Source: Neophaeotheca triangularis
Taxonomy: Eukaryota
Length of the DNA stretch: 64,000 bases
NCBI GenBank assembly: GCA_054600435.1
Contig: BAAIJX010000008.1
Location: 434,001 to 498,000 of the forward strand
Direction: 5' to 3'
Positions within the stretch are counted from its first letter, which is position 1. Each line of letters opens with the position of its first letter. Position numbers and translations under genes: made by a program. Below the pieces are notes generated by a model that saw nothing but the letters and a program-made list of their open reading frames with translations, was not told where the DNA came from and searched no databases. Positions 27,150-64,000 of this stretch are shown here, in pieces.

Positions 27150-28300
27150 CCCCGGTCCCACGCGAGACGAGTTCCGCACGCCTCGAAGAAGCCGGTCGAG
27201 GCCCAAAACGGCCTTTAGCTAGCTCGTACCCGCGAGAGAGCCAATGGCAAGAGCCGGCTTGGAATGGGGTTTGGACATGCTCGCCAGGGACGCGCAGAGG
27301 TGGTGTTTTGAGGCGGGCTGGAGGTTGGGGGTTTTGATTGCCTCTCGGCGGGTTTGGGGCTGTTTTTCTGCACTCTATCGGACGGAGTGTATTTGTGTGC
27401 GGGAGGGACGCAGTTGGCGCGGTAATATGCGTTCTGTTAGCGTGGACTCTGGGAGCCAAATGGTACGAGCCCGTTTGAGGCGGACTGGGGAGCTGCTCGC
27501 CGGGGACACGGAGGTGTGGGTGGCTTTGGGCTTGGGGTTGGAGTTTCGACTGCTCTCGGCGGGTTTGCGGCTGACCCGTGATTCTCTGTCGCTAGAGACC
27601 TAGGTCATGACCAAAATGTCCCTTGGTAAGCGCGCGCCCTTGGAAGCCAGTGGTAGGAGGTTGTCTTGGGGCGGGGTTGGATCTTCTCGCCAGACGCACC
27701 GGGTTGGGATCGACCTTAGGCTTGAGAATGGTGTGCCAGCTCCTCCTCGGCAGACTGTCGCTGTCCCAGGGCTTTCTGCCGCCGTCACCCAAAAATGGCC
27801 GTGTCAAGGCGAAAGCGTCCTTTAGCTAGCGCGGACCTCTCAGAGCCAATAGCGAGAGCTGGTCTCGATCGTTTTTAGTTTTGCTCGCTGGGAGAACTGA
27901 GGTGCGGATCGCTTGAGGCTTGTACTGAAATCGAGGTCTGCTCTCGGCGGAACCGCCCTGTCCCATGACTTTCCGTCGACGGAGACCTGTACAGAGCGGA
28001 AACGTCCCTAAAATAGCGCGGACGAGTAGAGACCAATGAAATGAAACAGCGCGTTTCCGGTTTCGCAGGATGGCTCGCCCGGGACCTATCCTGGCGCTGA
28101 TTTCTGCCTTCAGATGACCATTTCAGCTCTTCCCGGCGATGCATTGCAGTCCCATGACTTTCTGTCACTAGAGACTCAGAGAAGACGAAAACGTCCCGTG
28201 GCTAGCGCGGACCGGTGAGAACCAATGAGAAAGGCCGCTCCGAGTTCGTTGTGAAAGGGCCCGCCAGGGACACGAGCCTGTGCTTCGTGTTCAGCCCGAG
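27150..28300. repeat. Degenerate tandem array, about 6 units of ~190-215 bp
   Basis: A recurring ordered motif set GTCCCATGACTTTC / AAACGTCC..GCTAGCGCGGAC / GAG-CCAAT / GCTCGCCAGGGAC, with CCAAT-like anchors near 27241, 27456, 27647, 27846, 28033 and 28222. Confidence 0.7.
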
Positions 28301-42676: not shown

Positions 42677-43042
42677 ACCCTCTCGAAACCTCTCGGTATA
42701 ACTATAACCTCTTAAAACGCGATAACGGCCTCTCGAGATGCAGCGACGGCCTCTCGAAATGCGACGACAGCCTCTCGAAATGTAGTAACAGCCTCTTAAA
42801 ATACGACGATGTCTTAAAATGTAATGACGGCCTCTCGAAATGTAGCGACGGCCTCTCGAAATGCGACGACGGCCTCTCGAAAAAGCAGCGACGGCCTCTT
42901 AAATGCGACGATGTCTCGAAATACGACGACGGCCTCTCGAAATGTAGCGACGGCCTCTCGAAATACGACGACGGCCTCTTAAAATGTAGCGACGGCCTCT
43001 TAAAATGTAGCGACAGCCTCTTAAAATGCGACGACGGCCTTA
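42677..43042. repeat. ~21-bp minisatellite (GCGACGGCCTCTCGAAATGTA-like), about 17 degenerate copies
   Basis: Repeated gacggcctctcgaaat[g/a] with variants such as ctcttaaa. Confidence 0.9.
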
Positions 43043-43206
43043 TTACGGTAAGAGGCCTCTCCTCCTCTTTCCTAGCTAAGGAGGGCCTAGCTAGTAGGAG
43101 AGGGCCTACCTAGTAGGTACTACCTCCTTACTTATTTACTACTTATACCCTATAGCGTAGATAGATTAGCTAGACCACTTTACTTCTATTACATATTCTA
43201 ACTAAT

Positions 43207-43590
43207 TGTCTTAGAGCGTGTTATATAGTAGCTGAGAATTGAAAAGATTAACTAGTAAATCACTCTCAACTCAAAAGTCTACCTAACTACCCCTAGTCTA
43301 CCTAACTGTCCCTAGTCTACTCGACTCCTACTAGTCTGTCTACCTACTAGCGGTCTACCTGACTCTCGCTAGTCTATACGACTACTAATAGTCTATATGA
43401 CTCTCGCTAGTCTACTCGACCATTAACAGTCTACCTAACTCGCTCTAGTCTACCCTACTCGCTCTAGTCTACTAGACTTACCGAAGTCTACCTGACTCGC
43501 TAAAGTCTAAGAGACTTGCCGAAGTCTAAGAGACTTGCCGAGGTTTCTCTAATTAGACGAGGTCTATAAGACTAAGGTTAAGACGAGACA
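43207..43590 (+). repeat. Candidate 5' LTR of element A, with internal ~21-bp TAGTCTAC repeats
   Basis: Bounded by TGTCT(T/C)...GAGACA inverted termini (one RIP-type change) and directly upstream of the gag-like region. The partner LTR is not in the window. Confidence 0.45.
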
Positions 43591-46500
43591 GCCCTAAATA
43601 GTTAATACTAAGTCAGACGATAACGATAGGAAGTTAGAAAGAATACCTAGGTAGAGTAAGAATAAGATAGGGAACGAGTACAACTTACTTCAAGCATTAC
43701 TATACGCGCCTAGCGGAAGCTAGTACCCTTATCGCGGTCCTATTACCTTTAAGGAGACCGTAGCTACTTAGTAAGATTTCGATTACATAGCCCTCTAATC
43801 TCACAATAAACTTCCGCATTCTACAAATATCCCCTAACAACACTAAGAGTTCGATCGAATCGATTAAGCTCTAGTTATATAGACATCCTAGATTCGCTCC
43901 TAGACCTTACTAAGTTCTAGATCGAAACTACTCACTAATTGTCAAACTTTTATAGCGATTAACCTAGATCTAAGGCTGTCTACGGAAGATATAAGACTAT
44001 CTAGCGTATTGTAGACATAATCGCTACTAACTACCCCTATACTAGTTCTAAACACTAGGAGTTTAGTTTCCTAATAGCTTAGTGTGTCGATAAGACCTTA
44101 ATTACTCTAGAAGTCAAGGACCTACTTTCTACTTACGAAGGCCTACGACACTACCTAGTCTTATAAATCGAGCCGCCCCCTTCTATAGATCATTTAGGAG
44201 TAGCTACTACTACGTCCGCTCCCTATAGACCTCTGTCTACATTAGTCGCTAGGATCCTGCCTAAGCTAGAGTGGAATGCTCGCTAAAAGCTACTAGTTAC
44301 CCTAGAACAGACTCCTTTACCTAAAGATGACGAGTTAATTAGCCCTACGATTAGCGATGACATAATTAGAACGGAAAACTATGTTTTCCCTAGTTTCTAG
44401 TCGATAAGCAAACCTAACTTTTCCCCTACTTAGTCGATTTCGACCGTGATATTAGAGGGATCTTCATTATTAATTCCGCCATAACTAGCCGAATTCCGTA
44501 AAGCCCCTCATGCCTTTCACGAGCCTCTAAGACTAGCTATTACCCTCTCTAAGGACGTCCCTAGTACTATACTTCTATCTCGACGCTATACTGTGACATT
44601 ACTACTAGCCGCCCTATACTCTCTAATCATAATTATAGCTACTAGATAACTATAGTACTTCGACTACCTTAATGAGAATAGCGAGGAAACTGTTATAGGA
44701 CCTAGTACCCTACTAAACGGTCTATAGGAGGACGGGGAAGATCCTTAAGAAGTAAGAGACGAACCCCTATAGATTATTAACCTCATAATAGTAGCGCTAG
44801 ACGAGATAGTTAATAGAGCTATAGTAGGAGCAATCTAGGAGCTCGACGCCTACGCTAAGACGCGTTTTAAGGCTTTCCGCCGCGGCCTAGAAACGAGAGG
44901 TGATACCGATAGAGGTACTCGTTAGGCCGAGAGATAGGACGCCTAAGCACATAGATATCTCGGCGACGATTACCGCGAGAACGCTTAAAGGCTAAGTAGC
45001 TAGGACGTCCGGAACTACAGGCATTACTACGAGGAATAGCGCCGAGATAGTTAATAATCTAGTAGAGAATAGGCAAGTAATAGTAGGTTCTCCCGCGAGG
45101 ACTGTCTTAGACGAGGGGGTTTTCCCCTAGATAAAGAAACGCGTCCCTCTAACCCCCCTAATCCTAATCCTTCTAGCTCGGACACTAATAGCCGCCCTTA
45201 TAGCCGTTAGGATAGACGCGGTAGAGGCCGGCTATAGTAGCCGTCGAGAAGTTATCAAGACTCCTACTAGCCCGAATCACGCTCCTATTCCTATACCTAT
45301 CACTCCTTTTTTAGAGCTAAGGATGTTAGTTTTTTTGATCTATACCTATCTAACATAGAAGCCCCCCTAGGCGATACCACTATATATTAGAATAAGCCCT
45401 ACTATCGCTCCATCCATTTTTTCATCTAGGTAGCAAGAGACTATGTAATGGTTAATAGCGCTATAGCCATTAGGCTCTAGCTTAGTAAATGTCTCTAGGG
45501 TACTATAAGTTAGTAGTTTATAGCCTAGCTTAGCGAGTTAGAGTATGACAACCTACGAGGTAAGCCTAGCATTAAGCGATAGGAGATAGCTCTCTATAAC
45601 AAATATAGGGTCTTAGTAATAACGGCTATAGTAAACCTCACTACTAAGGCCTATACTAAGGATGATATATGTACCGGACGCCCCCCCTCTAAGTTTATAC
45701 TTAGCTATTACTAATAGGCACTCGAGGCCTATATCGATAGCATAGAAGCACATCTAGCCTAATGTTAGATAAAGATCGACAGTTAGCTCTGTCACGACAT
45801 CATGAAACTAGATAGTAAAAGCACGTAGGAAGAGATGATTAGGGAAATGGAAGACGCTATAGACGTTTAGAGGGATCTTTATCCCCCCTACCCCTATTTT
45901 TCTAACACTAAACGTAAGCCGACCTACATGAATCGCTCTAAGGATAATAGTAGTCATAGAAACTATACTGATAGCTACTAGGAGTCTTAAGACTCGGGTA
46001 GTCGCTACGATTCTAATAACCGCTACGACACTAATAATTACTAATAGCGACAGAATTTTACCCCTAGGCGAGCCGAAAACGCTAGTAACCGAGCTCCCTA
46101 GGGGCCTCCTATGAGAAGAGAGTCCGATTCGAGTGAATAGATAGTAGTTAACTACTAGTCTTAGTAGTATCTAGGATAGAGTAGGTAGAACCGACCTAGA
46201 TAACTAGCTAATAACTACCTCGCTAGTATAGGCGAGGAGGAAAACATCTAGGACGAAGTTACTAAGATAGTAGAAGCCGAGCTACTACGAGGCGATGACT
46301 CTAATAATAAGGCTAGGTAGGAGGTAGTAGTCAATTTTAACGACTTAGTTCGTTATGACTATAGTAATGAGGACGATTTTCTTAATAGTAACGACTTAAC
46401 AGAAGTCTATGTTAACTAAGCGCTACCCCTAAGCCTTTTCGCCCTATCTAATGACTACATACTACGCCCTACCGTAGCCCTAGCACTATGACTAGTTAAA

Positions 46501-49500
46501 ACCCGTTATGTATATTGCTCATAGACTTTTAGATCTAAGAACTCGCTCTATCGGCACCTATATACTAAGTATAGCTCCCCCTAGTCTTTAGGTATAGAGT
46601 CTACCTAACTAGCCGACTCTTCCGCTACCCCGACAGACCTAGTTACTAAGCGCGCTAGGGAATACACTGTCGTCAAATCTATAGCGTAAGTAGTAGACTT
46701 CTAAGGCTATATGTTTAGAAACTACTTTTACCTTAGAATGATGATCTAACTAACCCTAAGTGGTTAAGACTACTCTATCTGTCTAGACACGGGCGCTACC
46801 GTGTCGATAATAGACGCTATATTTCTTTCATAGTAGCTCCCTAATATTCCCCGGTTAAAGTCTAAGGTCCCGTTTTAAGTATAGGGAGTTAGAAAGAAGC
46901 TAGAGACATGTACTAAATACATTATACTTACCTTCTAGACACTCGCTAAGCGTAGTACTAGTCGAGTACTCTATAAGATAACTTACGAAGTTTATGTCAT
47001 CGATAGGTTAAAGCTACTCATACTAATATCGATAGACATTACTATACCCGAGCTATTTAAGATTAATATCCCCTATAAGCTCCTTAAGATAGGGGCATGC
47101 TAATACACGAAGGCCCCCCTCCTCATTAGGCCTTACGACTCTCTAAGAGTAGCTATTACCGTCAAAACACTAAACAAGATTATTATATCTCCGAGATCAC
47201 TAGCTAAGGTCCTAGTTACCCTACCCGAGCTACTAGTTAACTAGGATTTCGGTTTCGCCCCCCTTAACCTACTAGGTAGTCTTATAGGATATAAGTATAT
47301 AGTTAACGTACACCTCACTTTTGTCATGGTACGAAACGACTCCTACTCCCCTATAGCTATCCTAGTAGGCTACTAAATAGGCTAGCTAGCTAAGTAGGAA
47401 GAGGAAGATAGGTATTATATTGACCTAGAAGACTACTACCTAGCTAGACTCCTACCTAAGACTATTTTCAAGGGTCTACTAGATACCGAGTAGAACATGC
47501 TCGATAATAGCATTACGGTCTATAGTAATGAGAACTAGCTCTATAGACTCTAAGCATTAGTGACACAATTTTCAAGCCTTTTCGTTAATAAAGGCTAGAT
47601 AGTAGACATCCCGGAGTCCCATTTTATGCTAATCTATTTAAAAGATAGCTAGGATAAAGAAAAACTCTCCTCTAAAAGCTATAACCTTAGCATGACAGAC
47701 TGCGAGGTCATTAACAAGGTTTTTAATAAGCTCTATATATCGGGCAAAATGGAGTACTCGAGAGGCTATACCGCTTTTAGTTTCCTAGTGTTTGTAGTCT
47801 AGAAGACTATTTACACTAATAGTAAGCTAGTAAGGAAAGGTCGTGCTGTCGTTAATATCCATAGTTTGAACAAGGTTATAGTTAAGGACAGTTACCCCTT
47901 CCTACTATAGGAGGATTTGCTCTAAGTAACTCGAGGAGCCTCCGTTATTTCAGTAATAGACACTATTACTTTTTTCTACTAATAGCTAGTATGCCTAGAA
48001 GACCGCTATAAGCTCGCTGTCAACTCCTACTAAGGACAGGAAATTTTCAAGGTAGCGATTATAGGTTTTAAGAACTCTATAGCCTATGTTTAATAGGAGC
48101 TAGACAATATACTATAGGAGCTTCGCCCATTCTATAGGGCCTATATCGACGACATCATGGTTTTCTCTACCTTATTAGACGAGCACGTTACCTACTTATA
48201 AAGTCTTTTCGAAGTCCTCGCCTAGTACCGAGTCAGTCTTAGCCTAATAAAGACTTTTTTAGGTTTCCCCTCTATGTCGTTACTAGGTCAGCACATTAGT
48301 GGGCTCGGCCTAGCGACCTATGAGGATAAAGTTAGAGCTATTCTCGACCTCCGTTTCCTGAGAATGCTAAAGGAGCTTAAAAAGTACCTTAGATTGACTA
48401 GCTAGTTAAGGTCATCAATCCCCTACTATACGTAAATAACTTAGCCGCTCTAACACCTAAAAACCGAGCTACTTTAGGGAGGCCCCATTAAGGGTAATGC
48501 CTAGCGCTACTATACGGACAAGACGGTAGTGAGCCTAGATAGCGATATGGTCCGCGAACTAGCCTATAAGGCATATTACACGCTCTAAGAAATCTTCCGT
48601 AGGACGCCTTTCCTTTACTACCTAGACCTAGGCTACTAGCTCTATATTAATATAGATATATTGAAGGAGTTCGGTTTTAGTATAGTCGTGTACATAGTAG
48701 CTAGCGACCCTAACCCGGTTATAGAGGGCAATAAGGCTGTCTATTTTATGCATAAAGACATATAACCTATAGCTTTCCTTAGTAAAGGATTGACTACTAT
48801 AGAAGTAAACTACTAGCCTACTAAACTAGAAATGGCTAGGCTAGTGTAAGTACTTAGAAAAGCGAGACATCTTATATAATCCGTGCCCTAGTAGACAGTA
48901 GTGTTTATAGACCACGTAGCGGTAACCGGCATTACTACATAACATAGCCTAACGACTACTATAGCTACTAATAGGCTTAACCTTCGTCTTATTAGAGTAG
49001 GGTAATACCTGTCCTAATTTTCCCTAGATATTAGGTACTGACTAGGCTATATACATATAGTCCTAGATGCCCTAAGTAGACTCCTTAGCGATATGACGAC
49101 CCTAGTAGAGACCCTAGACGCTAACACCCTCGACCCTATAGGTTACGAGGAGGCTTATTATGCTATTTATGACTTCGAGGGTAGGTAGGCTTACTAAATC
49201 CCTACCCATAATACTAATTAGGAACTGCTCGCTTTTTATACCTCCTTAGTTAAGCTTAACGATAACTTTAAGAGCGAACTACTCGACGCTTATAAGTAGG
49301 ACTCTTTCTAGGCCTTACGCTTAGAGTAACTACTTGATTAGGAGAAACGCCATTAATAAGAGGCCGTACACCCTACTACGATAAGCGAGCCCCTCCGGTA
49401 TACTAACACACTACCGGTTTTTCTAGTAGATGTCGAGCCCGTTAACCTAGACGAAGTCGCGGGTAAGCCCGAGTCTATACCCCTCGGGTTAAAATTTTTC

Positions 49501-51614
49501 CTTAGGTAAGGTCTTATATATTTCAAAGATTAAGAGGACGGACGAGAGCGCCTCTATATCCCTAAGGCACTTTTTAAAGAGGTCTTCAAGATAGCCTATA
49601 ACGATTACTACTATATAGGTTTTTTCAGATCCTATACTCGCCTCTAGTCGAGTTTCTACATCCGAAGACTACTAGACGAGCTACGCTATTACATTACCTA
49701 TTGTCCGGACTATAATGTATACTAGACTTTATAGTACTACCTACTAGGGGAGCTCTAACCGACCTAGACAAGGCTAATTCCTTACTATACCTAGATAGCG
49801 GATTAGGTAATTAGCCTTCTACTAACTATAGAAGGTTTCGACGCCATACTAACTATTACCGATCGTTTCTCCAAGAAAATTCTCTTAGTATAGGGCAAGA
49901 ATGAATAGTTAGTAGAGGAGTGGGCTACTATGTAGCTCGACGCACTATAGGTAGTAGAATAGAACATACCTACTATACTAATAGGTAATAGAGATAGGCT
50001 ATAGCTATCTACTTTCTAGAAGGGACTTTTCCGGAAGCTTAGAACGAGATTTTTAGCCTCGACCGCCTATTACCCCTAGACAGACAGGTAATTAGAGCGA
50101 ACTAACTAAACGGTAGAAATAGCTCTACGATTCTTCGTTAATATGAACCTAGACTACCCCTAGGATGTAGTACTATCACACATCTAGTCTACCCTAAACA
50201 ACGTACGGAACGCTATAACTAATAAGATCCCGAACGTTATTATCTAGGGCTTCAAGACAAATCTTAACGCCCTTAACCCCCTAGTCGAGCTCCTACCTTC
50301 TTAGTATGCCGCGCTATAATAGATAACATAGGACTAGGCATTAGACTCGTTAGTACTAGTAGCTACTATAATGAAGGATCGATATGACTACGCGTATAAA
50401 CTAGTCTATTTCTATATAGGGTAGAAAGTTTTGCTTAGACTCTAGAAAGGTTACTCTATACCCGGCCTAATGCCCCAAAAATTAGCTATATAGCGAGTAG
50501 GCCCTTTTAAGGTAACTAAGGTCATGGGGAGACTCGCTTACTAGCTAGACTTACTAAGTAGTTAGAAGATGTACCTAGTGATATCGATCGCCTAACTCGA
50601 GCTAGTACTAGCTATACCGGACCTATATAGGTAAGAGCTAGTAGAGCTAGGGCTAGTATATATAGATAACAATAGCGTTAACGTGTATTAGATCGAACGA
50701 CTCCTTACCTATCGAGTTAGGAAGTAAGGAGGAAAAGACGTCAAATAGTACTTAGTTAAGTAGGAATCTTAGGGACCAGCGCACAATACATAGTATGACG
50801 TAGACGACCTCGCTAACGTAAAAGAGTTAGTTGAGAATTACGAACACAACTACCCCGGGACGTAGGGGGATATAAATGTTCGCCGCTAGAAGACACGCTA
50901 GTAAACCACTATAACATGAACGTCTACGTTAGTCCTAGACCCCGCGGCGTAACCCTTACTAGCTCTAGCGCGGGATTCTATCGTTAGCGTAGCCCGGCCT
51001 ATATACCGTTTAGTACCGTGTCTACCGCGAGTCTTAAGGACAGCTAAGAGTCTACTAGACACGCTAAGACGAGCGCTAAGTCTACTAGTTAGGTAGACTT
51101 TATCAAGTCTCTTAGACTTAGGCTAGACTCCCTCCCTACTAAATGACCGTCGTTAACGGCTACAGCTAGTTCTCTAAAGAATAGGAGACGAGGTATGAAG
51201 GTAAGCTCATAGAGCTACTACTCGTGCCTACTAAGACTCTTAAACACCTATAGGTATTTCTAATACCGAGCGTGTCGACTATCCTTATCTTTTATTAGTA
51301 GCGCGTGGGTCTCTACGGCAATAAGTGACGTGTTACCGATATAGGCTTAGTAGAAGAGTCTAGAAACACCTCTTCACTTCCGCTTTTAGTAGTATTAACA
51401 ACACTTTCTCAGTCTACTTTACTCCGCGCCTATACACCCTCTAACTCCTTTCTTTTCACAGACTAACATCACTAACACCTTTCGACCCTATATAAGAAGT
51501 ATACTAGATTAAACGTGAAGCTCTACCTACTAATACACTACCTCCTATTACCTCCACTTCACCGGTCGTCATTACTAACGACTCGTATAACTCCTAAACG
51601 CTAGAGGTTGTCGA

Positions 51615-52057
51615 TGTTACGGGATTTCCCGAACACAGGATTTCATTGGTTAGTATAGAAGGATCAAGAGCCAAGGAACGCAGCGTCTCGACAAAACGCG
51701 GTCGAGCTGCATCCTGACCACACTTCGGCCGAAGACTCATGCCATGTCTCGCTCAGCTCGCGTCGAGACAGTCGACCTCGCTCGACTACTCGACAGGCGA
51801 GATGGCGAGCAGAAATCGACTATCTCGAGAACGAGACAGTCGAGACACACGAATCTCCTTTATATTTAGGTAGCGACATTTCCTAGATAGAGATTTGTGT
51901 TCAACTCATGTTACAATCTTACTAAAAGGTCTATAGCGATACTTCACGTATCTTTGAAATCCTTACGACAAAGGAAACACCCTTACTAGCCTTCTACGAT
52001 ATCTCTCCTCTTCCGCTACGAGCTCTACCCGTAAGACTACCTTGTAGGATCGTAACA
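51615..52057 (+). repeat. 5' LTR of element B
   Basis: TGTTAC...GTAACA, 443 bp, TATA-like TATATTTA at ~51861. Confidence 0.97.
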
Positions 52058-52098
52058 CTTTAAACACCCTCTAAGAAAGAGAGATCAATAAGGCAAGT

Positions 52099-54318
52099 AT
52101 GTCCCTATCCGATAACCGAGACGTAAGCGTCGCCAGCACTTAACGAGGAGTATCGACTATAACAACTAACAAGGTTACCAAACCGGACTACTTCTATAGC
52201 GAACGCAACAAGCTAGACGACTAGGTTAACCAGATGATGATGTTCTTTCTTATAGAGAGCGTCAGTGAGCAGAAGCAACCTCTCACTACTACTTCTTTCC
52301 TTCGAGGAGAAGCTTAACACTAGATCCGCCCTAAGCTTACGGATTTCCTTATAGAACGAACTGACCCCGAAGGACTATTCTCGAACTAGAAGTCTTTTAT
52401 TAAGGTCATCCGCAACGTCTATAGATTGAGCAACGATCGACAAGTTGCTATCCGAATGATTTAGTACCTCACGTAGAAAACGTCTGCCTCTTAGTATACT
52501 ACCAAGTTTCAGGAGCACTTAGCCAAGACTAACTAGGACGACAACGCTCTCATGACTATGTACTATCGAGGACTTAAGGACAACGTAAAGGACGAACTCA
52601 TGCGCTACGGAGGCGATTAGTTAACTCTCCCCAGTATAATCAAATCAGCGATCGAGGTTAATAACGCTCTCTACGAACGGTTTATAGAAAAACGCCACAC
52701 TGGACAATTTCGCGGACGAACTAGCTATACTACCGGCAGCCGGCCTGTCGGTTAGCAACGTCGCAATCCTAATACGATAGAACTCGACTCCACGTAACAG
52801 CGTCCTAGGAAAAGCAGGGATAGAGGACAGGGCAAACAGAACGCCCTAGGCAAGAAACGGAACGGACCGGAATACTATAACTGCTATAAGATAGGGCACT
52901 ATGCACGAGACTGCCGTGGGAAATAGATATGCCTACGACAGGAGGTTAATGCGATTTTGACCCGACAGGACAATGACTCTCCTACCGATAAGAGCCGTAG
53001 AGCTTATGACATCACCGGAACCCACGAAGAACCGGAGCACGACGAACTTCACTAGAGGTTTTACAAGAGGGATTACTGTTTAGTGCACAAAAGTTAGGGA
53101 CTAGTAACCAATGGAATACCCATCAGACCTTAGAAGGAAGTGAACATCATCGAACGAGTTACCCTAAAGTCTAGAATAGACGCGCTAATCGAGCAATACT
53201 AGAAACTCAGGGAGTTTCACGATAACTTAGTTAGTTATAAGGAGTAGACTGAAGAACACTTTAACCTCATGATCTAAGTAGCCGATTAAATAGCAGATCT
53301 CAACAACAGGATTAAGGCCACAGTAGACAAAGAATCTAAGCAACTACGCAAGCCTTAGAAGGAACTCAACATGATGTCAAGACGCTAACCACTACAGCAG
53401 TCAAGGGACGACGGCAACGCAGCCCGAGGAAGGTCCCCACCTCCATTTACATAGGAGGACGACAAACTACAAGAAAACCAAGCACTATCACCGATGATGG
53501 CACCACTAACACCCGACTCGGACAACGAAGAAATATCTCAGATACCGGAACTCACTACGATCGTACCAACACCGGAGATTAGCCCTTTGAGACTATCGAT
53601 GCCTCTAGAAATTCTAGAATCGCAAGAAGATATGACAGTGACAGATTCCGAAGACGACTCTGAATACGAATACACCGACGACGAAGAACCCGACGACAAC
53701 GATACCTTAGAGTTCATTATAGAAGGACCCGCACTAATCAAGAAGATGGTCACCCACATCGCACGATTGTATGAAGAAGTGTTCCCAAGGATCCAAGGCA
53801 AACGACGCTTGGAACCCAATCAATTCGAAGCCATGCTCACGCGACTACGAGCAATGTTCTAGGACTACCGAAAGGTCGCCGTTAAGTATGACGCTGCCAC
53901 CTTTATCTAGGATAGGCCACTAATGGGAAGCACTTTCCACGGAGAAAACGGCTACATTACGCCAGATGGGATACAGATCCTATACACGATGAGACAACGA
54001 GTCAAGACAGTCAAGAATCGTTACAGAGAATTCTAGCTCATCTAGGAGCAGTGGAGAGAAGAAGAAATTACGCTATAAGAAATGAAGAAACAAGCATAGG
54101 ATTCCTTGGACTAATGGACGATAGTACCACGTGAAAAATTTCTACTACTAGTCGACCGCAAGATGATCCTCGGACACGTTAAAGTAACCACACGAGGACC
54201 CATCACCACACACGCAATCCAAGGAAAAGTCACGATTAAACCTCGGGACAGACCCCTTTACTAGGAAGTCTCTCTCGAGACAGCGGATTCATCCACCTAC
54301 TTCTCAAAAAACGAATAG
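52099..54318 (+). pseudogene. gag of element B (RIP stops), with a long post-knuckle extension
   Basis: ATG 52099; KPDYF.SER..LDD(W), MYYRGLKDNVKDEL and GHYARDC; ends F-S-K-N-E-stop. The 53494-53862 ORF is a surviving piece of this frame. Confidence 0.85.
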
Positions 54319-57300
54319 GACCTATCGCTAAGAGCGAGCGTTAGGAACTGAACAACACAAATGCTCAACACGAAATAGCATCAGGAACGGTCTTCCGAAC
54401 AACATGTACTGTCGACAGATACGAAACCTTTACTATGATAGATTCCGGAGCTAGCGGAAACTTTATCTCGGAAACATTCGTACGTCAGCATAGGCTAGCT
54501 ACCTAGAAGAAAACAGATAGCAGGTACGAACTGATAGCCGTAGATAGCTTATCACTACCCGACGTGGATAGCGAAACAGTACCGCTACCACTTGTCTTCT
54601 AAGAGCATCATGAGCGAATTGTCCTGGACGTTATACCTATAGCTAGACATGACGTCGTTCTAGGCACTCCTTGGTTAGAACGACACAATCCTATAGTAGA
54701 TTGGAGAAAACGAGTACTCACATTCGACAGGTGTAGTTACGTCACTACAACCTACCCTGCGCGCCGGCAGCGATCGACGGCAGATGAGAGAAGGCAGATC
54801 AATGAAACATATCGCCAATCGACCACGATACCAATACGAATTGGATCGGACTCCACAGATACCGAACTAGCCTAAACGGACTAACAAGTAAGAGTTGAGG
54901 AAGGAAGTCACGCACCTTCGGATATCCCTAGAGAATTCAGGAAATAGAAGCGCCTTTTCTAGGAAGAGGAAGGAGCAGCCGCTCTGCCTAGACATCAACT
55001 ATAGGACCACCGAATCGACATTTAGCCCGGTGCGAAAATACCATGGGGGCCACTTTATGCGCTATCCGAAAAAGAGCTCGAAGAGTAACGACAATGGCTA
55101 GATGAAAAAATGAAGAAAGGATAGATTCGACCCTCCACTTCATCAGCCGCTTCACTACCGTTTTTCGTTCCGAAGAAAGGAGGAAAACTACGAATGGTTA
55201 TCGATTTCAGACGACTTAATGCGATCACCACAAAAAACCGTTATCCACTGCCTAACATCGACGAGATAAGAGATCGACTCACCGGTTCACACTAGTTCAC
55301 CAAAATCGATCTCCGAGATGCATTCTATTCAGTCAGAATAGCAAGGGGGGAAGAGTGGAAAACAGCTTTTCGAACGCGCTACGGACTTTACGAATTCCAA
55401 GTCATGCCTATAGGACTTATGAACGCCCTAGCAACCTGTCAACAACTCGTCAACGACATCCTGCGAGACCTACTCGATATTACTGTCATCGCTTACATCG
55501 ACGACATATTAGTCTTCACGAAAGGATCACGAGAACAACATACTAAAGACGTACACGCCGTGTTCGAACGACTCGATAAGGTAGACTTCAGGACAGCACT
55601 AGAGAAGTGCGAGTTCTACAAAAAGGAAGTCGACTTTCTAGGCTTTATGATTAGCACTACCGGGATCTGAATAGACCCGAAGAAAACTCAATCGATCGAG
55701 GAATGGCCGACACCTAAGTCAGTTAAGGACATTCAAGCATTCCTTAGACTAGCTAACTACAATTAGAAATTCGTGCAGGATTATTCAAGGCTCGCTATGC
55801 CTCTAACTAATCTCACGAAGAAAGACACACCATTCGTATAGGGAAAGATTTAACAACAATCCTTCGATAAGCTTAAGGAGTCATACACGACTACCCCTAC
55901 GCTTAGGATGTTTGACCCTAAGAGACCTATCCAAATCGAAACCGATGCCTCCGACAGAGCAATAAGAGCTTACCTCACGTAGGAGGTTGAAAGCAAACGA
56001 CACCCTATCGCCTACTTCTCAAGGAAGATGTCACTAGCGGAACAGAATTACGAGATCTACGACAAAGAACTGCTCGCAATTATTACAGCATTGCGATACT
56101 AGAGAGTGTACTATGAAGGAGCAACCGGACTAACTATTTACTCGGATCATAAGAACCTACAATACTTCATAACTACTAAGGAACTGTTATGCCGACAATG
56201 CAGATAGTTAGAGCTACTCGGACAATATAAGTTCGACATAGTCTACACTCCTGGAAAAGACAATAGGCGCGCTGACGCGTTAAGCAGAAGAAGCGACTAC
56301 ATGGAAGGGCACCTTCTATAGCAACACCGCATACTAAAGGTTAATAAGGACGGAAGCCTAAGCGCTAACCCTTAGGAATTTAACTCAGTACTACGAGTAC
56401 TTAGGGATGATACCGAAGAATTCCCTATCGAGTATAGGAAGTTCAGGGTTCTAAACGAAAAGGAACGCCAGTACATCTAGGACTACCATGATGGACCCAC
56501 TAACGGACATCCAGGAATCGCTAGAACAGTAGAACACATCAGACGCAACTTCGTGTTTCCCGGAATGAGACAGAAGGTCTCAGAGTACATCAAGAAGTGT
56601 ACGAGCTACTAACAAAACAAAGCTTCAAGACACGCTAAATATGGAAACCTACAATTCTAGGAGCTACTAGATCTACTATAGAACGAGGTCACAATAGATT
56701 TTATCGTCAAGTTACCAAGATCTAAGGACCCGTCAACAAGTAAGGACTACGATTCAATTCTAGTCATAGTCGATAGACTCACGAAGTATTCACATTTCGT
56801 TCCCTATAACGAGACAATCACTATAGAGGAACTCGGATACCTCGTTCTCGACAGATTAGTACGATACCACGGCATTCTAACGGTTCTAATTACGGACAGA
56901 GATAAGCTCTTCACATCCAACTACTAGAAGACCTTAATATCAGCGATAGGAGTGAAACACAAGCTCTCTACAGCATTTCACCCCAAAACCGATAGACAGA
57001 CAGAGCGCTCAAACTAATCCCTCGAAACGTATTTACGACATTATGTCAACTACGCTTAGGACAATTGGGTAGCGCTCTTACCTATAGCACAGCTCGCACT
57101 TAACAACAATGCCTTAGAGACAACAGGAATAACTCCGTTCTACGCAAACTTCGGAAAAGATCTAAACATGTTCATAGAACTAAAGCCAGGACCACTCGCG
57201 GAAAGAGCCCTATAAACGTCTTCGTAGCTGTAGGAAGCATACAAACAGGCGAAAGACAAAATCACACAGTCGTAACGGCGACTCGAGTCATAGAGATATA

Positions 57301-57740
57301 AGGACTCCAAAACGGCACCTCAGCTTAAGAAGGGGGATAAGGTGTACTTACTTACGAAAAACCTGAAGACAAGGAGACGAACACGAAAACTAGACCATAT
57401 CAAGGTCGGACCGTTTCTGGTTAAAGAACAAAGAGGAAAAGTCAACTACCTCCTCTAACTCCCGAGAGACGCTAGAGTCTATCCAGTATTCCATATATCC
57501 TTGCTCGAACTAGTAGACGCCAAAACACCTATCTAGGACACCTTCCACCACGATCTACTAGAGGAAGAAGCCGAATACGAGGTCGAAAAGATTCTAGACA
57601 AAGACAGTCAGAACTACCTCGTAAAGTGGAAAGGGTATCCCACAAGCGAAAACACTTAGGAACCTAAGGACAACTTACTTAACTACTAGAAGCTGTTATG
57701 ACAGTATCGCCAGGCAGGAAAGGGTCGGTCGCGTTGTTAA
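54306..57740 (+). pseudogene. pol of element B (PR-RT-RH-IN-chromo), -1 frame relative to gag
   Basis: Slippery A AAA AAC at 54306-54312. The protease-motif ATG at 54435 is in the -1 frame. Domain motifs are interrupted by RIP stops. Confidence 0.9.
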
Positions 57741-58176
57741 TGAAGTCTAGCGACGACTAGACAGTAGGAGAAAGACCTACGGTCGCATCCGTAGCAGGAC
57801 AATCCTCCGACTCCAGCTCTCCTAATACGTCTATCTCCGACATAAGACACTTAGCCTTACGGCGAGCACGCGCCTCAGCCTGATGAAGAATCGCTTTATT
57901 ACGCATCAACCGAGCCATAATACGAGCCAACTCCTCCTTATCCTTATCAACCTTTTTCTAGTATTCCTCCCGAGTACGATCCAGGGAAGCCCACGACAGA
58001 TTGACGCACGCCTTGCCCTAACGAACGCACTCTAAACATTTCAATCTAGAAGAACTCTCTATAGCGATGCAGTCGTGGCCAGAAGAAAAACAGCGATCAT
58101 AAGGGAACAGAACTAGGTGACCATTACGTTGAATCTCTTGAGCAAGACGAAGGCGGTTTTGTTTCGAGCGGGACAT
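57679..58176 (-). pseudogene. Antisense accessory ORF of element B: Zn(II)2Cys6-like cluster plus coiled coil
   Basis: MSRSKQNRLRLAQEIQRNG..P[Y<C]DRCFSSGHDCIA.ESSSRLKC.ECVR[*<Q]GKACVNLSWASLDRTREE...; 166 codons with three RIP-type TAG stops. Confidence 0.75.
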
Positions 58177-58266
58177 CGTAAGATGACGAGAGAAGAGAGA
58201 AGTAGGGAAAGGAGCTATTTACTAAGTTACGGACCGCTTAGGACAAGCGCCCTAAGAGAGGGATAG

Positions 58267-58709
58267 TATTACGGGATTTCCTAAACACAGGATTTCATTA
58301 GTTAGTATAGAAGGATTAAGAGCTAAGGAACGCAGCATCTCGACAAAACGCGGTCGAGCTACATCCTGACTACACTTCGGCCGAAGACTCATGCCATGTC
58401 TCGCTCAGCTCGCGTCGAGACAGTCGACCTCGCTCGACTACTCGACAGGCGAGATGGCGAGCAGAAATCGACTATCTCGAGAACGAGACAGTCGAGACAC
58501 ACGAATCTCCTTTATATTTAGGTAGCGACATTTCCTAGATAGAGATTTGTGTTCAACTCATGTTACAATCTTACTAAAAGGTCTACAGCGACACTTCACG
58601 TATCTTTGAAATCCTTACGACAAAGGAAACACCCTTACTAGCCTTCTACGATATCTCTCCTCTTCCGCTACGAGCTCTACCCGTGAGACTACCTTGTAGG
58701 ATCGCAACA
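58267..58709 (+). repeat. 3' LTR of element B
   Basis: T(A)TTAC...GCAACA, 443 bp, colinear with the 5' LTR; about 13 transition-only differences by eye. Confidence 0.97.
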
Positions 58710-59134
58710 GTCGACTTCGAAGAATAATAGCGTCAGCGAAAGTTCTGGTCACAATTCTAGCTAAACGAACTCGTAACGCTATAGCTTAGTTACCCTAGGT
58801 CGTATGAACTACGCCTAGTAGCCGAACCTTTTACTAAGGGTACTAAGTGGTTAAAGACTAACGTAGCTACCTTACTCTTTATAACTAACCCTAATTATGT
58901 CTTCACTTTCCGTACCTATAAGTATAGACTACATGTCTTAGCTAACAGTTTCACTCCTAAAGGGTAGTTCGATAAGGATTACCGTTTTCACACTCTTACT
59001 ACAGCCCTCTTCCACTCTAATATTTTCTACTAGGTAAAAGACAACGAACTCTACACACTAATAGAGCTCTCTAGTAGTATCCTTTTCTATTACCTCCTTA
59101 TCCTTTAAAGGGCCTCGTAGGCAGTTAAGTACAT

Positions 59135-62100
59135 TGTTATAGCTAAGCTAAGTAGAACTAGAATCCCTAGTCTAAGCTAGGGTCTAACCCTAAAGCTTAC
59201 TAGACACATGATCTTAGAACTAGCTAAGATGTTCGCTTAGACTTTAACTAAGCATGCTCGCTTAGACTTAGACTAAGTCTAAGCTAGGATACTTAGGATT
59301 AGTCTAATCCTAAGCACGATAGATTAGTTAAGGACTAATCTAACATGAATCTCCTATATATATAGCTAGCGATATTTCCTAGGTAGAGATGTGTGTTTAA
59401 CTTATGTTATAATCTTACTAAAAGGTCTATAGCGATACTTCACATATCTTTGAAATCCTTATGACAAAGGAAATACCCTTACTAGCCTTCTTCGATATCT
59501 CTCCTCTTCTACTACGAGCTCTACCCATAAGACTACCTTATAGGATCATAACACTTTAAACACCCTCTAGGAAAGAGAGATTAATAGGCAAGTATATCCC
59601 TATCTGATAACCGAGACATAAGCGTCGCTAGCACTTAATGAGGAGTATTAACTATAACAACTAATAAGGTTACTAAACCAGACTACTTCTATAGCGAATG
59701 TAATAAGCTAGATAACTAGGTCAACTAGATAATGATGTTCTTTCTCATAGAAAGCATTAGTAAGTAGAAGTAACCTCTTACTACTACTTCTTTCCTTCGA
59801 GGAGAAGCTCAACACTAGATCCGCCCTAAGCTTATAGATTTCCTTATAGAACAAATCGACCCTAAAGGACTGTTCTCGAACTAGAAGTCTTTTGTTAAGG
59901 TTATCTATAACGTCTATAGATTGAGTAACGATCGACAAGTTGCTATCTGAATAATTTAGTACCTCATGTAGAAAATATCTACCTCTTAGTATACTACTAA
60001 GTTTTAGGAGTACTTAGCTAAGACTAATTAGGATAATAATGCCCTCATGACTATATACTACTAAGGACTTAAGGATAACATGAAGGACGAACTCATACGC
60101 TATAGAGACGATTAGTTAACTCTCCTAGGAATGATCAAATCAGCGATCGAAGTTAACGACGCGCTCTATGAACGGTTTATGGAAAAACGCTACACTAGAC
60201 AATTTCGTAGACGAACTAGCTATACTACTAGTAGCTAGCCTATTAGTTAGTAATGTCGCGATCCTAATACAATAGAACTCGACTCTACATAATAGTATCC
60301 TAGGAAGGGTAGGGATAGAGGATAGGGTAAACAGAATGCCCTAGGTAAGAAATAGAATGGACTAGAATACTATAACTACTATAAGATAGGGCACTATACA
60401 TAAGACTACTATGGGAAACAGATATGCCTACGATAGGAGGTTAATGCGATTTTGACCTAATAGGATAACGACTCTCCTACTAATAAGAGCCATAGAGCTT
60501 ATGACATCACTAGAACCTATAAAGAACTAGACTACGACGAACTTCACTAGAGGTTTTGTAAGAGGGATTACTATTTAGTATATAAAAGTCAGGGACTAGT
60601 GACTAACAGAATACCTATTAGACCTTAGAAGGAAGTGAATGTCATTAAACGAGTTACCCTAAAGTCCGGAATGGATACGCTAATCGAGTAATACTAGAAG
60701 CTTAGGGAGTTTCACGATAACTTAGTTAGTTATAAGGAGTAGACTAAAGAACACTTTAACCTCATGATCTAAGTAGCTAATCAGATAGTAGATCTTAATA
60801 ATAGGATCAAGGCTATAATAGATAAAGAATCTAAGTAACTACATAAGCCTTAGAAGGAACTCAATATAATGTTAAGACGCTAACCACTATAGTAGTTAAG
60901 GGACGATAGTAATATAGCCTAAGGAAGGTCCCTACCTCTATTTATATAGGAGGACAACAAACTATAAGAAAACCAAGCACTATTACCGATAACGGTACCA
61001 CTAACACCTAACTTAGACAACGAAGAAATATCTTAAACACTAGAACTTACTACGATCGTACTAACACTAGAGGTTAGCCCCTTAAGACTATCGATACCTC
61101 TAGAGATTCTAGAATTATAAGAAGATATGACAGTGATAGATTCCGAAGACGACTCTAAATACGACTATACTGATGATGACGAACTAGATGACAACGATGT
61201 AGTAGAGTTCATTATGTATAGACTAGGACTAATCAAGAAAATGGTCATTTACATTATATAGTTATATGAAGAAGTGTTCCTAGTAATCTAAGGTAAACGA
61301 CGCTTAGAACCTAATCAATTCGAAGCTATACTTACATGACTATGAGTAATGTTCTAGGACTACTAAAAGGTCGCTGTCGAGTATAATGCTACTACCTTTA
61401 TCTAGGATAGGCTACTAATAGGAAGTACTTTCTATAGAGAAAACGGCTACATTACACTAGATAGGATATAGATCCTATACATAATAAGATAATGAGTTAA
61501 GATAGTTAAGAATCGTTATAGAGAATTCTAGCTCATCTAGGAGTAGTAGAGAGAAGAAGAAATCATGCTATAAGAAATGAAGAAACAAGTATAGGATTCC
61601 TTAGACTAATAGACAATAGTACTACATGAAAAATTTCTACTACTAGTCAACCGAAAGATAATTCTTAGATATGTTAAAGTAACTACACGAGGATCTATCA
61701 CTATATACATAATTTAAGGAAAAGTTATAATTAGACCTTAGGACGGACCCCTTTACTAGGAAGTCTCTCTCGAGATAGCGGATTTATCTACCTACTTCTC
61801 AAAAAACGAATAAGACCTATTACTAAGAGCGAGCGTTAGGAACTAAACAACACAAATGCTTAACATGAAATAGTATTAGGAACGGTCTTCCGAACAACAT
61901 GTACTGTTAATAGATATGAAACCCTCGCTATAATAGATTCTAGAGCTAGTAGAAACTTTATCTCGGAAACGTTCGTATATTAGTATAGGCTAGCTACCTA
62001 GAAGAAAACAGATAGTAGGTATGAACTAATAGCTATAGACAGCTCATTACTACCTAACATAGATAGCGAAATAGTACCGCTACTACTTGTCTTCTAGAAG

Positions 62101-64000
62101 TACTACAAGTATGTTATCTTAGATGTCGTGCCTATAGCTAGACATGACATCGTTCTAGGTATACCTTAGCTAGAGCGACATAATCCTATAGTAGATTAGA
62201 GAAAACGAGTACTTATATTCGATAGGTATAGTTATATCACTACAACCTACCCTATATGCTAGTAGCGATCGACGGTAGATAAGAGAAGGTAGATTAACGA
62301 AACATATCGTTAATCGACTATAATACTAATACGAATTAGATCAGACTCTATAGGTACCGAACTAGCCTAAATAGACTAATAAGTAAGAGTTGAGGAAGGA
62401 AGTCATATACCTTTAGATATCCTTAGAGAATTTAGAAAATAGAAGCATCTTTTCTAGGAAGAGGAAGGAGTAGCTACTCTACCTAGACATTAACTATAGG
62501 ACTACTGAATCAACATTTAGCCTAGTGCGAAAATACTATAGGGGCCACTTTACGCGCTATCTGAAAAAGAGCTCGAAGAGTAATGACGATAGCTAGATGA
62601 AAAAATGAAGAAAGGATAGATTCGACTCTCCACTTTATTAGCTACTTCACTACTGTTTTTCGTTCTAAAGAAAGGAGGAAAATTATGAATAGTCATTGAT
62701 TTCAGATGACTTAATGCGATTACTACAAAAAACCGTTATCTACTACCTAACATCGACGAGATAAGAGATCAACTCACCAGTTCACACTAGTTTATTAAAA
62801 TTGATCTCCAAGATGCATTCTATTTAGTTAGAATAGTAAGGGGGGAAGAGTGGGAAACAGCTTTTCGAATGCGCTATAGACTTTATGAATTCTAGGTCAT
62901 GTCTATAGAACTTATGAACGCCCTAGTAACCTATTAGTAACTTATTAACGACATCCTACGAGACCTACTCGATATTACTATTATCGCTTACATCGATAAC
63001 ATATTAGTCTTCATAAAAGGATCACGAGAACAACATACTAAGGACATACATGTAGTATTCGAACGACTCGATAAGGTAGACTTTAGAATAGTACTAGAGA
63101 AATACGAGTTCTATAAGAAGGAAGTCGACTTTCTAGACTTTATGATTAGTACTACTAGGATCTGAATAGACCTGAAGAAAACTCAATCGATTAAGGAATA
63201 GTCGACACCTAAGTTAGTTAAGGACATTTAAGCATTCCTTAGATTAGCTAACTATAATCGGAAATTCATGTAGGACTATTCAAGGCTCGCTATACCTCTA
63301 ACTAATCTCACGAAGAAGGACACACTATTTATATAGGGAAAGATTTAATAACAATCCTTTAATAAGCTTAAGGAGTTATATATAACTATCCCTATACTTA
63401 GGATGTTTAACCTTAAGAGACCTATCTAAATCGAAACTAATATATCTAATAGAGTAATAGGAGCTTACCTTATATAGGAAGTTGAAAGCAAATGACACCT
63501 TATCGCTTACTTCTTAAGGAAGATGTTACTAGCGGAATAGAACTACGAGATCTATGACAAAGAACTACTCGCAATTATTATAGTATTACGATACTAGAGA
63601 GTGTACTGTAAAGGAGTAACTAGACTAACTATTTACTCGGATCATAAGAACCTACAATATTTCATAACTACTAAGGAACTATTATGCTAACAATGTAGAT
63701 AGTTAGAGCTACTCGGACAATATAAGTTCGATATAGTCTACACTCCTAGAAAGGATAATAGGCACGCTAATATGCTAAGTAGAAGAAGCGACTACATAGA
63801 AGGACACCTTCTATAGTAACACTATATACTAAAAGTTAATAAGGATAGAAGCCTAAGCGCTAACCCTTAGGAATTTAACTTAGTACTACGAGTACTACGG
63901 GATAATACTAAAGAATTCCCTATCGAGTATAGGAAGTTTAGGGTTCTAAACGAAAGGGAACACTAGTGTATCTAGGACTACTATAATAGACCTACTAACA
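59135..64000 (+). mobile_element. Element C: second, more heavily RIP-mutated member of the B family (runs off the window)
   Basis: LTR 59135-59553 (TGTTAT...ATAACA). Internal sequence is colinear with B from 52058 on: gag, AAAAAAC site at ~61801, PR, RT, RH and start of IN. Confidence 0.95.

Follow-up and report, generated by a model that had tools for sequence, protein, structure and literature searches.

Background

LTR retrotransposons may carry extra genes in antisense, whose function is given as unknown in the accessible portion of PMC7264820. The closest described case is brtn of Boty, an antisense gene located between pol and the 3' LTR, whose function is likewise given as unknown in the available parts of the papers that mention it (PMC7264820, PMC8365987, PMC4227169, PMC5987419). 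A second system concerns the U3. In crapaud of Podospora, a family with RIP, many U3 variants are found upstream of the TATA on a common R-U5 and internal region (Westerberg et al. 2024, PMC10787394); in the available part of that paper, template switching is proposed as the origin of the U3 subfamilies, and no settled cause is given for the diversification of U3s inside a single fungal family. Our literature search, with most subscription journals outside its coverage, found no paper that links a zinc-cluster gene to U3 motifs and to the exchange of cassettes, and the words "zinc" and "antisense" are absent from the main text of Muszewska 2011 (PMC3248453).

We analyzed a stretch of 64,000 nucleotides of Neophaeotheca triangularis (contig BAAIJX010000008.1), hereafter the window, which contains a chromodomain Ty3/Gypsy element with an antisense gene between pol and the 3' LTR. 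As a kind, an antisense gene at this site is known; the exchange of the gene together with the U3 on a common backbone is the surprising part.

Structure of the element

The element measures 7.1 kb and lies on the plus strand at 51615-58709; it was identified from its LTRs, target duplication, polypurine tract (PPT) and domain order. The 5' LTR (51615..52057, plus strand) and the 3' LTR (58267..58709, plus strand) are both 443 bp long and have U3s of the same type. About 13 differences, exclusively transitions, separate them, and the target duplication GTCGA is present at 51610-51614 and 58710-58714. Gag and pol (52099..57740, plus strand) are RIP-damaged, with RIP-type dinucleotide indices across the region, and comprise protease, RT, RNase H, integrase, SH3 and chromodomain. 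The order protease-RT-RNase H-integrase-chromodomain in pol is that of chromodomain Ty3/Gypsy elements, and the chromodomain matches PF00385 (E 1.7e-10). The PPT is at 58254..58266 (plus strand).

A preliminary description of this DNA had reported a 166-codon frame on the minus strand, between the chromodomain and the PPT and overlapping the end of pol. This is exact: the frame 58176-57679 is composed of an ATG, 164 codons and a stop (165 residue positions), and it shares 62 nt with the end of pol, whose stop is at 57738-57740. The gene, which belongs to the cassette type called A below (57679..58176, minus strand), is dead in this copy: TAG is found in frame at codons 53, 73 and 140, and a full protein would not be made from it. 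Positions 26, 29, 36, 47, 50 and 57 of the frame read Y, C, C, C, C and C, with the spacing x2-x6-x10-x2-x6. Six cysteines with this spacing had been proposed after reversal of RIP-type changes, and we checked this reading by comparing, unedited, the seven type-A copies of the genome. It holds: the six positions are occupied by 30 Cys and 12 Tyr (42 in total, no other residue), and every position is Cys in at least two of the seven copies. Over the frame these copies show zero indels, each has at least one stop, and 109 of their 114 polymorphic columns are pure transitions.

Other features were seen in and around the element. Just after the 5' LTR, positions 52058-52067 are nearly complementary to GTGTTCAA (58549-58556), downstream of the LTR TATA; such near-complementarity resembles that of self-priming chromoviruses. 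About 490 codons separate the zinc knuckle of Gag from the protease (52950-54420, plus strand); they include an acidic stretch and are without Pfam match. Directly to the left, 43600-51600 (plus strand) is a Ty3/Gypsy element of greater age and with heavy RIP damage (matches to RT, RNase H and SH3), in which no six-Cys gene was found. The window also has several repeats. A tandem array of 19-nt units (43276-43554) has an inverted counterpart at 51085-51130, another of 21-nt units lies at the border of the repeat block (42708-43076), and a 45-nt repeat occurs five times, spaced at about 190 nt (27199-28226). An open frame of more than 2,000 codons starting from the window edge (2-6230, plus strand), rich in E/Q/K/A and coiled-coil-like, gave no Pfam match at E<=0.001 and is probably a host gene.

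Evidence for a conserved gene

Searches with the antisense frame found 18 homologues among 125 candidates, the best being 62% identical (Cercospora kikuchii), and the profile built from these 18 retrieved 434 cluster representatives at E<=0.001. All six Cys are present in 174 of the 204 homologues covering the six columns (288 proteins examined), a share somewhat flattered by cluster duplicates and by matches of a profile made from six-Cys sequences. Departures from Cys are Tyr, the RIP outcome, in 57 cases out of 59.

In metagenome contigs, a relative is encoded in 139 of the 241 candidate stretches. We examined the best 80 of these 139, which include several duplicates and come for 60 of them from one series of assemblies: pol lies directly behind the gene on the opposite strand (tail-to-tail) in 77 loci, the exceptions being L060 (394 bases), L073 and L074. 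No relative was found in the viral contigs searched.

Substitution patterns were then considered. In the part of the gene that is clear of the pol overlap (first 125 codons), pN/pS is 0.08, 0.11, 0.19 and 0.20 in four related pairs (a fifth is nearly identical), and 0.15-0.34 for their pol; the pair L050/L056 gives 0.54. Four of the five other frames over the gene have a pN/pS of 0.67-5.3, and the fifth, frame -1, which has third positions in common, 0.22-0.61. Differences by codon position are 0.33/0.24/0.55 (136 pairs), and the median dN/dS is 0.24 (103 of 435 pairs, those with pS 0.1-0.65). These results make it almost certain that we are dealing with a real gene and not a chance frame. It is the third gene, conserved and in antisense, of one clade of chromodomain Ty3/Gypsy elements in ascomycetes. 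The preliminary description had placed it outside the canonical Ty3/Gypsy set, as a gene borne by the element, and had suggested dN/dS and linkage to Gypsy pol as checks. Both came out in its favor, together with the six Cys: neither their loss among the copies nor a capture in this copy alone, the two outcomes it had named as adverse, was observed.

Co-variation of the gene and the U3

In the genome, the 3' region of the element has 31 matches. Of these, 7 span the whole query and 24 its chromodomain end alone; 30 of the places were taken as loci. Fifteen of the 17 long genomic stretches carry a cassette type other than A. They match the window from 51843-51852 to 57692-57714 at 85-92% (two are 5'-truncated), realign from 58495-58504 to the LTR end, and show no match between. 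The left (57692-57714) and right (58495-58499) junctions vary with the type compared; in the window, the part that is replaced (57693..58498) consists of the antisense gene, a spacer, the PPT and the U3. Within the 3' LTR, 58267-58498 is U3 sequence specific to type A, and 58499-58709 (a TATA-like word at 58511, then R-U5) is common to all types.

The backbone is nearly uniform. Its differences among types are mostly transitions, and transversions per kb amount to 2.7-2.8 within type A, rising to 4.3-7.9 in the 13 stretches that belong to four further types and to 15-16 in type D. It is also a mosaic: leaving aside sites private to type D, there are 119 informative transversion sites, most of which unite copies across types, in shifting sets. 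In the gap between the backbone matches, each type has its own antisense six-Cys gene at the same place. Protein identity between types ranges from 22 to 57%, with no significant match between A and G. Type E, which has a first loop of 14 residues, was left out of this pairwise comparison; it matches the family profile at E 1e-8 to 1e-11 in four copies.

Gene parts and U3 parts were clustered separately and gave the same six groups for 28 loci out of 28 (7, 3, 4, 11, 2 and 1 loci), L015 and L023 being set aside as the PPT pattern failed to divide gene from U3. Wherever a stretch has both a 5' and a 3' U3 (15 stretches), the two agree in type. The gene and the U3 are about 90 bp apart, and the types have only 40-50 nt of common homology between them. 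Six versions are thus present on one nearly uniform gag-pol/R-U5 backbone, and the one-to-one pairing of gene and U3 is new here. That gene, PPT and U3 form a single swappable cassette can be held with high confidence, the six types representing at most five independent swaps. The simplest route for the exchange would be template switching in the course of reverse transcription, both at R and at the end of pol, a switch at R being proposed for crapaud in the available text of PMC10787394.

A second copy of the same backbone, with a type-E cassette, lies about 400 bp downstream of the element (window 59112-64000 and beyond, to about 500300 on the contig; loci L133 and L028). In locus L121 (444-936 and 7730-8181), the type-B 5' LTR is immediately preceded by a type-C U3, and after the 3' LTR comes another R-U5; this reads as tandem or nested LTRs of different types.

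Domain organization of the protein

The predicted protein is organized as follows, all parts being on the minus strand. It starts with a basic helix (58123..58170), in which an R-x-R is recognizable in the family: the residue at C1-18 is K/R in 61 of 76 representatives and that at C1-16 in 65 of 76. The six-Cys cluster comes next (58006..58101, x2-x6-x10-x2-x6), with a first loop that is not basic and a second one that is. In the 77 type-A representatives the second loop is basic in 68 and 64 cases, and loop 1 hardly basic. Family spacing is constant save for the middle spacer (7-16), within the Zn2Cys6 pattern x2-x6-x5..16-x2-x6..8. A coiled-coil-like helix of about 56 residues (57826..57993) begins at a conserved S-W motif and is followed by an acidic tail with an S-P-x-x-W-type motif (57682..57825), whose last ~20 codons overlap the end of pol. 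The median net charge of the tail is -7 (77 representatives).

The AF2 model of the homologue P0001 (pTM 0.35) contains a basic N-terminal helix, two short cluster helices and a 56-residue helix (residues 63-118, pLDDT about 90); the long helix and acidic tail of the preliminary description are recovered in natural homologues. In a domain-only model (pTM 0.55), a hairpin is found where the first helix sits in the full model. The confidence of both models is modest. The top three Foldseek matches of the full model are Pho7, Pho7 and Put3, all at E>1, and Zn2Cys6 chains make up 9 of the 21 matches listed (E 1.2-8.5); VIA-align returned generic long helices and coiled coils (Z about 6.5). For the domain-only model, no Zn2Cys6 chain is among the matches listed (best Foldseek E 2.7, best Z 2.9). 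The family profile, compared to 177,635 PDB sequences, has Gal4 (1aw6) as its best match, with the six Cys in register and an E of 0.1. In the ESM Atlas, P0001 groups with unnamed ascomycete clusters (score 0.92), and the structure matches have a TM <0.5.

PF00172 gave no match for the window protein. Five of the 18 homologues score 11.5-14.4 bits, below the curated cut-off (21 bits), and 8 of 57 family members reach E<=0.1 (best 0.0019). Matches to Bunya_G1 and other Pfam families were below cut-off and were taken as noise. According to the available part of PMC6265462, Gal4 contacts CGG via Lys18, four residues past Cys2, and this C2+4 residue is Lys in Gal4, Ppr1, Hap1, Leu3 and AlcR, His in Put3 and Asn in Pho7. 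In the 77 type-A representatives it is Gly (35), Asn (20), Asp (7), Ser (5) or K/R (2), so that beyond the Pho7-like quarter with Asn the type-A family does not carry the C2+4 residue of these factors; our own cassette types B and D have Lys. The cluster is likely to be of the Zn2Cys6 type. Membership of PF00172 was not found, and assignment to the canonical Gal4 family is unproven. Of the Gal4-like Zn2Cys6 protein initially described, the spacing stands, while the PF00172 cut-off is unreached and the Lys18 equivalent is K/R in just 2 of 77 proteins. If it functions at all, the protein would work like a diverged Zn2Cys6 protein, which would bind zinc and may dimerise via the long helix.

Repeated words and candidate promoters

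Most U3 types carry their own repeated words. The U3 of the window contains 9 TCGA for 3.8 expected, a number reached in 0 of 100 shuffles, and the CTCGAC/GTCGAG repeats pointed out in the preliminary description are therefore real. CGG/CCG, which it proposed as targets as well, occurs 4 times for 5.7 expected and is enriched in none of the 21 LTR starts; this part of the proposal was dropped. 5-mers repeated more often than expected (p<=0.05) occur in 5 of the 8 own U3s tested and in none of 9 control pieces; among relatives, 13 of 15 U3s have one, against 1 of 11 pieces of pol. None was seen in six LTR sequences taken from two Gypsy families in which the gene was not found, these six being few, short and RIP-damaged. 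In this genome, two Gypsy families apart from the studied one (L139:6990-9480 and L145:6790-8350) have 2.5 kb and 1.5 kb between the last pol match and the 3' LTR, stretches in which no six-Cys gene was found. In L139, stops are scarcer in one of the minus frames (39 of 829), which may conceal an extra gene of another kind.

The U3 of the window has three dyads CTCG-N4/5-CTCG-N3/5-CGAG-N4/5-CGAG, at 58400, 58433 and 58467 (58400..58496), which are candidate binding sites. They adjoin the LTR TATA on its upstream side, and their number compares with 0.01 in shuffles. The four-part layout, with half-sites CTCG, CTCA or ATCA altered on both sides, is present in 9 of 16 relatives, for a pattern defined after inspection of the window and five relatives (L046, L061 and L062 are new to the pattern, and L044 is identical to L043); it is present in 0 of 5 other own types. 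A reading of the dyads as RNA hairpins was not favored: by eye, pairing of the N4/5 spacers is seen in only part of the dyads.

Words and proteins were compared in relatives. The pol of L051 is 94-96% identical to that of L056 and L059, and its gene 79% over part of its length. In trees, the L051 integrase groups with L059 and the L051 protein with L053 (weak support, 0.59). The U3s of L051 and L053, alignable over only 56 nt, both repeat GCTCGTC(C/A)ACGAGC, and the U3 of L051 does not repeat the word of L059. In the metagenome relatives, the U3 word appears to track the protein and not the integrase. Similarly, types B, C and D, with proteins 36-57% identical and U3s that are unalignable, have 6-12 copies of CTRAGCA each, counted in at most four copies per type; type E has 3 copies, and A and the badly damaged G have 0. 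The dyads and the words that follow the protein make the repeated CTCG/CGAG motifs plausible targets, as the preliminary description had suggested for CTCGAC/GTCGAG.

The antisense promoter had been placed in the 3' LTR, and this we have revised. A TATA-like word, TAAATA, followed by a pyrimidine tract, is present at 58216..58221 (minus strand), 45 nt upstream of the antisense ATG, and forms a candidate core promoter. Of 16 relatives, 15 also have a TATA-like word 39-56 nt before their ATG, under a loose pattern and without shuffle control. In relatives with a 50-nt spacer it is seen, by eye, inside the LTR instead. The antisense core promoter of this subgroup is thus likely to reside in the 90-bp spacer between PPT and ATG, not inside the LTR. 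In the same spacer, just 5' of the PPT, a hairpin with a GGA-containing loop was noticed by eye (58235..58249, plus strand). The loop is GGA or GAGGA; the stem differs among relatives (L041-L090) and among cassette types, complementarity being kept. The hairpin is possibly a cis signal of reverse transcription, and no description of it was found in the literature search.

Discussion

Our best reading, with a probability of about 0.55, is that the gene encodes a Gal4-like zinc-cluster factor acting on the dyads of its own U3. We infer expression of the factor, dimer formation, binding and activation. The antisense gene would be read from the small promoter between PPT and ATG; its product would dimerise and recognize its own U3 dyads (here CTCG/CGAG, not CGG), and binding at the dyads of the 5' LTR would drive gag-pol. 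The array of the 3' LTR, situated between two outward-facing TATA boxes, could drive the antisense gene itself. Each cassette would then be a matched activator-enhancer pair, self-regulating and interchangeable. That the protein binds its own U3 is in itself somewhat more likely than not and, in this case, an activator is more likely than a repressor or an anti-silencer.

The short distance between gene and U3, and the little homology which the types have there, mean that linkage alone may explain the pairing. Gene and U3 would travel together as neighbors at the RNA 3' end; host factors would read the U3, and the protein would serve particle assembly, integration or exclusion of rival elements via its long helix. 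Many U3s also have a GTCACGTGAC box, loop 1 is without Gal4's basic residues, and crapaud shows U3 subfamilies on a common internal region without a third gene (PMC10787394, available part). Against this stand the related proteins that keep the same word in unalignable U3s (types B, C and D; L051 and L053; the window and L045) and the half-sites that change symmetrically inside dyads, and we regard linkage as an unlikely sole explanation, though one to be taken seriously. A frame arising by chance, the mirror of a sense gene, or a host gene captured by this copy alone would agree with the broken state of the copy and with the 3 of 80 metagenome loci that lack pol behind the match. Sense frames mostly contain stops in the 30 open relatives, selection is seen in the antisense frame, and one-off capture is at odds with the 77 loci where the gene is linked to an opposite-strand pol. 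With the 434 representatives and six related versions at the same place in the genome, these explanations become extremely improbable.

It may also be that the protein binds its own U3 in another capacity than plain activation, as a sequence-specific anti-silencing factor comparable to VANC or as a repressor limiting copy number. Among related elements, VANC proteins have diverged in step with their tandem targets, a situation like that of the six cassettes (PMC5735166, available part). The antisense orientation would moreover give an RNA overlapping the end of pol (62 nt). Yet the candidate sites cluster directly before the LTR TATA and are not spread along the element, and the acidic, Trp-containing tail resembles an activation segment, so that these roles seem to us quite improbable. 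Returning to the self-acting zinc-cluster factor, a wider proposal, advanced tentatively and at somewhat less than even odds, is that fungal chromoviruses bring along a sequence-specific transcription factor together with its enhancer in one exchangeable unit, and that one gag-pol chassis operates under at least six non-cross-reacting factor-enhancer pairs, with a Zn2Cys6 derivative reading non-CGG half-sites. It would explain both brtn-type ORFs and crapaud-like U3 subfamilies.

The same backbone with six gene-U3 cassettes ties the question of antisense genes to that of U3 diversity, and as relatives offer natural swaps, one direct test can address both. Should such specificity be real, fungi would have a transactivator system encoded by a retrotransposon and, with it, a naturally occurring collection of small, orthogonal factor-enhancer pairs. 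The gene also adds noise to annotation: its relatives are recorded as hypothetical proteins of the host or as Zn(2)-C6 proteins.

Comparison with described systems

With the PF00172 factors (Gal4, Put3, Leu3, Hap1, Pho7), the protein shares the cluster C-x2-C-x6-C-x7..16-C-x2-C-x6-C, a long helix after it and an acidic tail, and these factors are the best, if weak, PDB sequence and fold matches of the family. It differs from them in its size of about 170 aa, the absence of a middle homology region and an extra basic N-terminal helix; most type-A members are without a Lys18 equivalent, and the candidate sites without CGG enrichment. Accessory regulators encoded between pol/env and the 3' LTR and acting on the LTR are found in vertebrate retroviruses, namely Tas of foamy viruses and HBZ of HTLV-1, the latter in antisense. 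Their folds are unrelated to that of the present protein, and we know of no exchangeable set of them on one backbone.

VANC of plant VANDAL elements is, like our protein, an element-encoded accessory protein, with repeated targets that differ among related elements; VANDAL is a plant DNA transposon, and binding is shown for VANC and inferred by us here (PMC5735166, available part). No relationship to VANC was suggested by the homology searches run. The brtn-type genes are likened to ours by position and orientation: an extra antisense gene, at the same place of a chromodomain fungal Gypsy element, conserved across copies. A zinc cluster and an exchange with the U3 are absent from what the citing papers describe, as far as their available text goes. 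Crapaud has two ORFs, and the word "zinc" is absent from the available main text (PMC10787394). Compared with crapaud, the variable unit reaches here about 570 bp to the left of the LTR and includes a whole gene, which changes with the U3.
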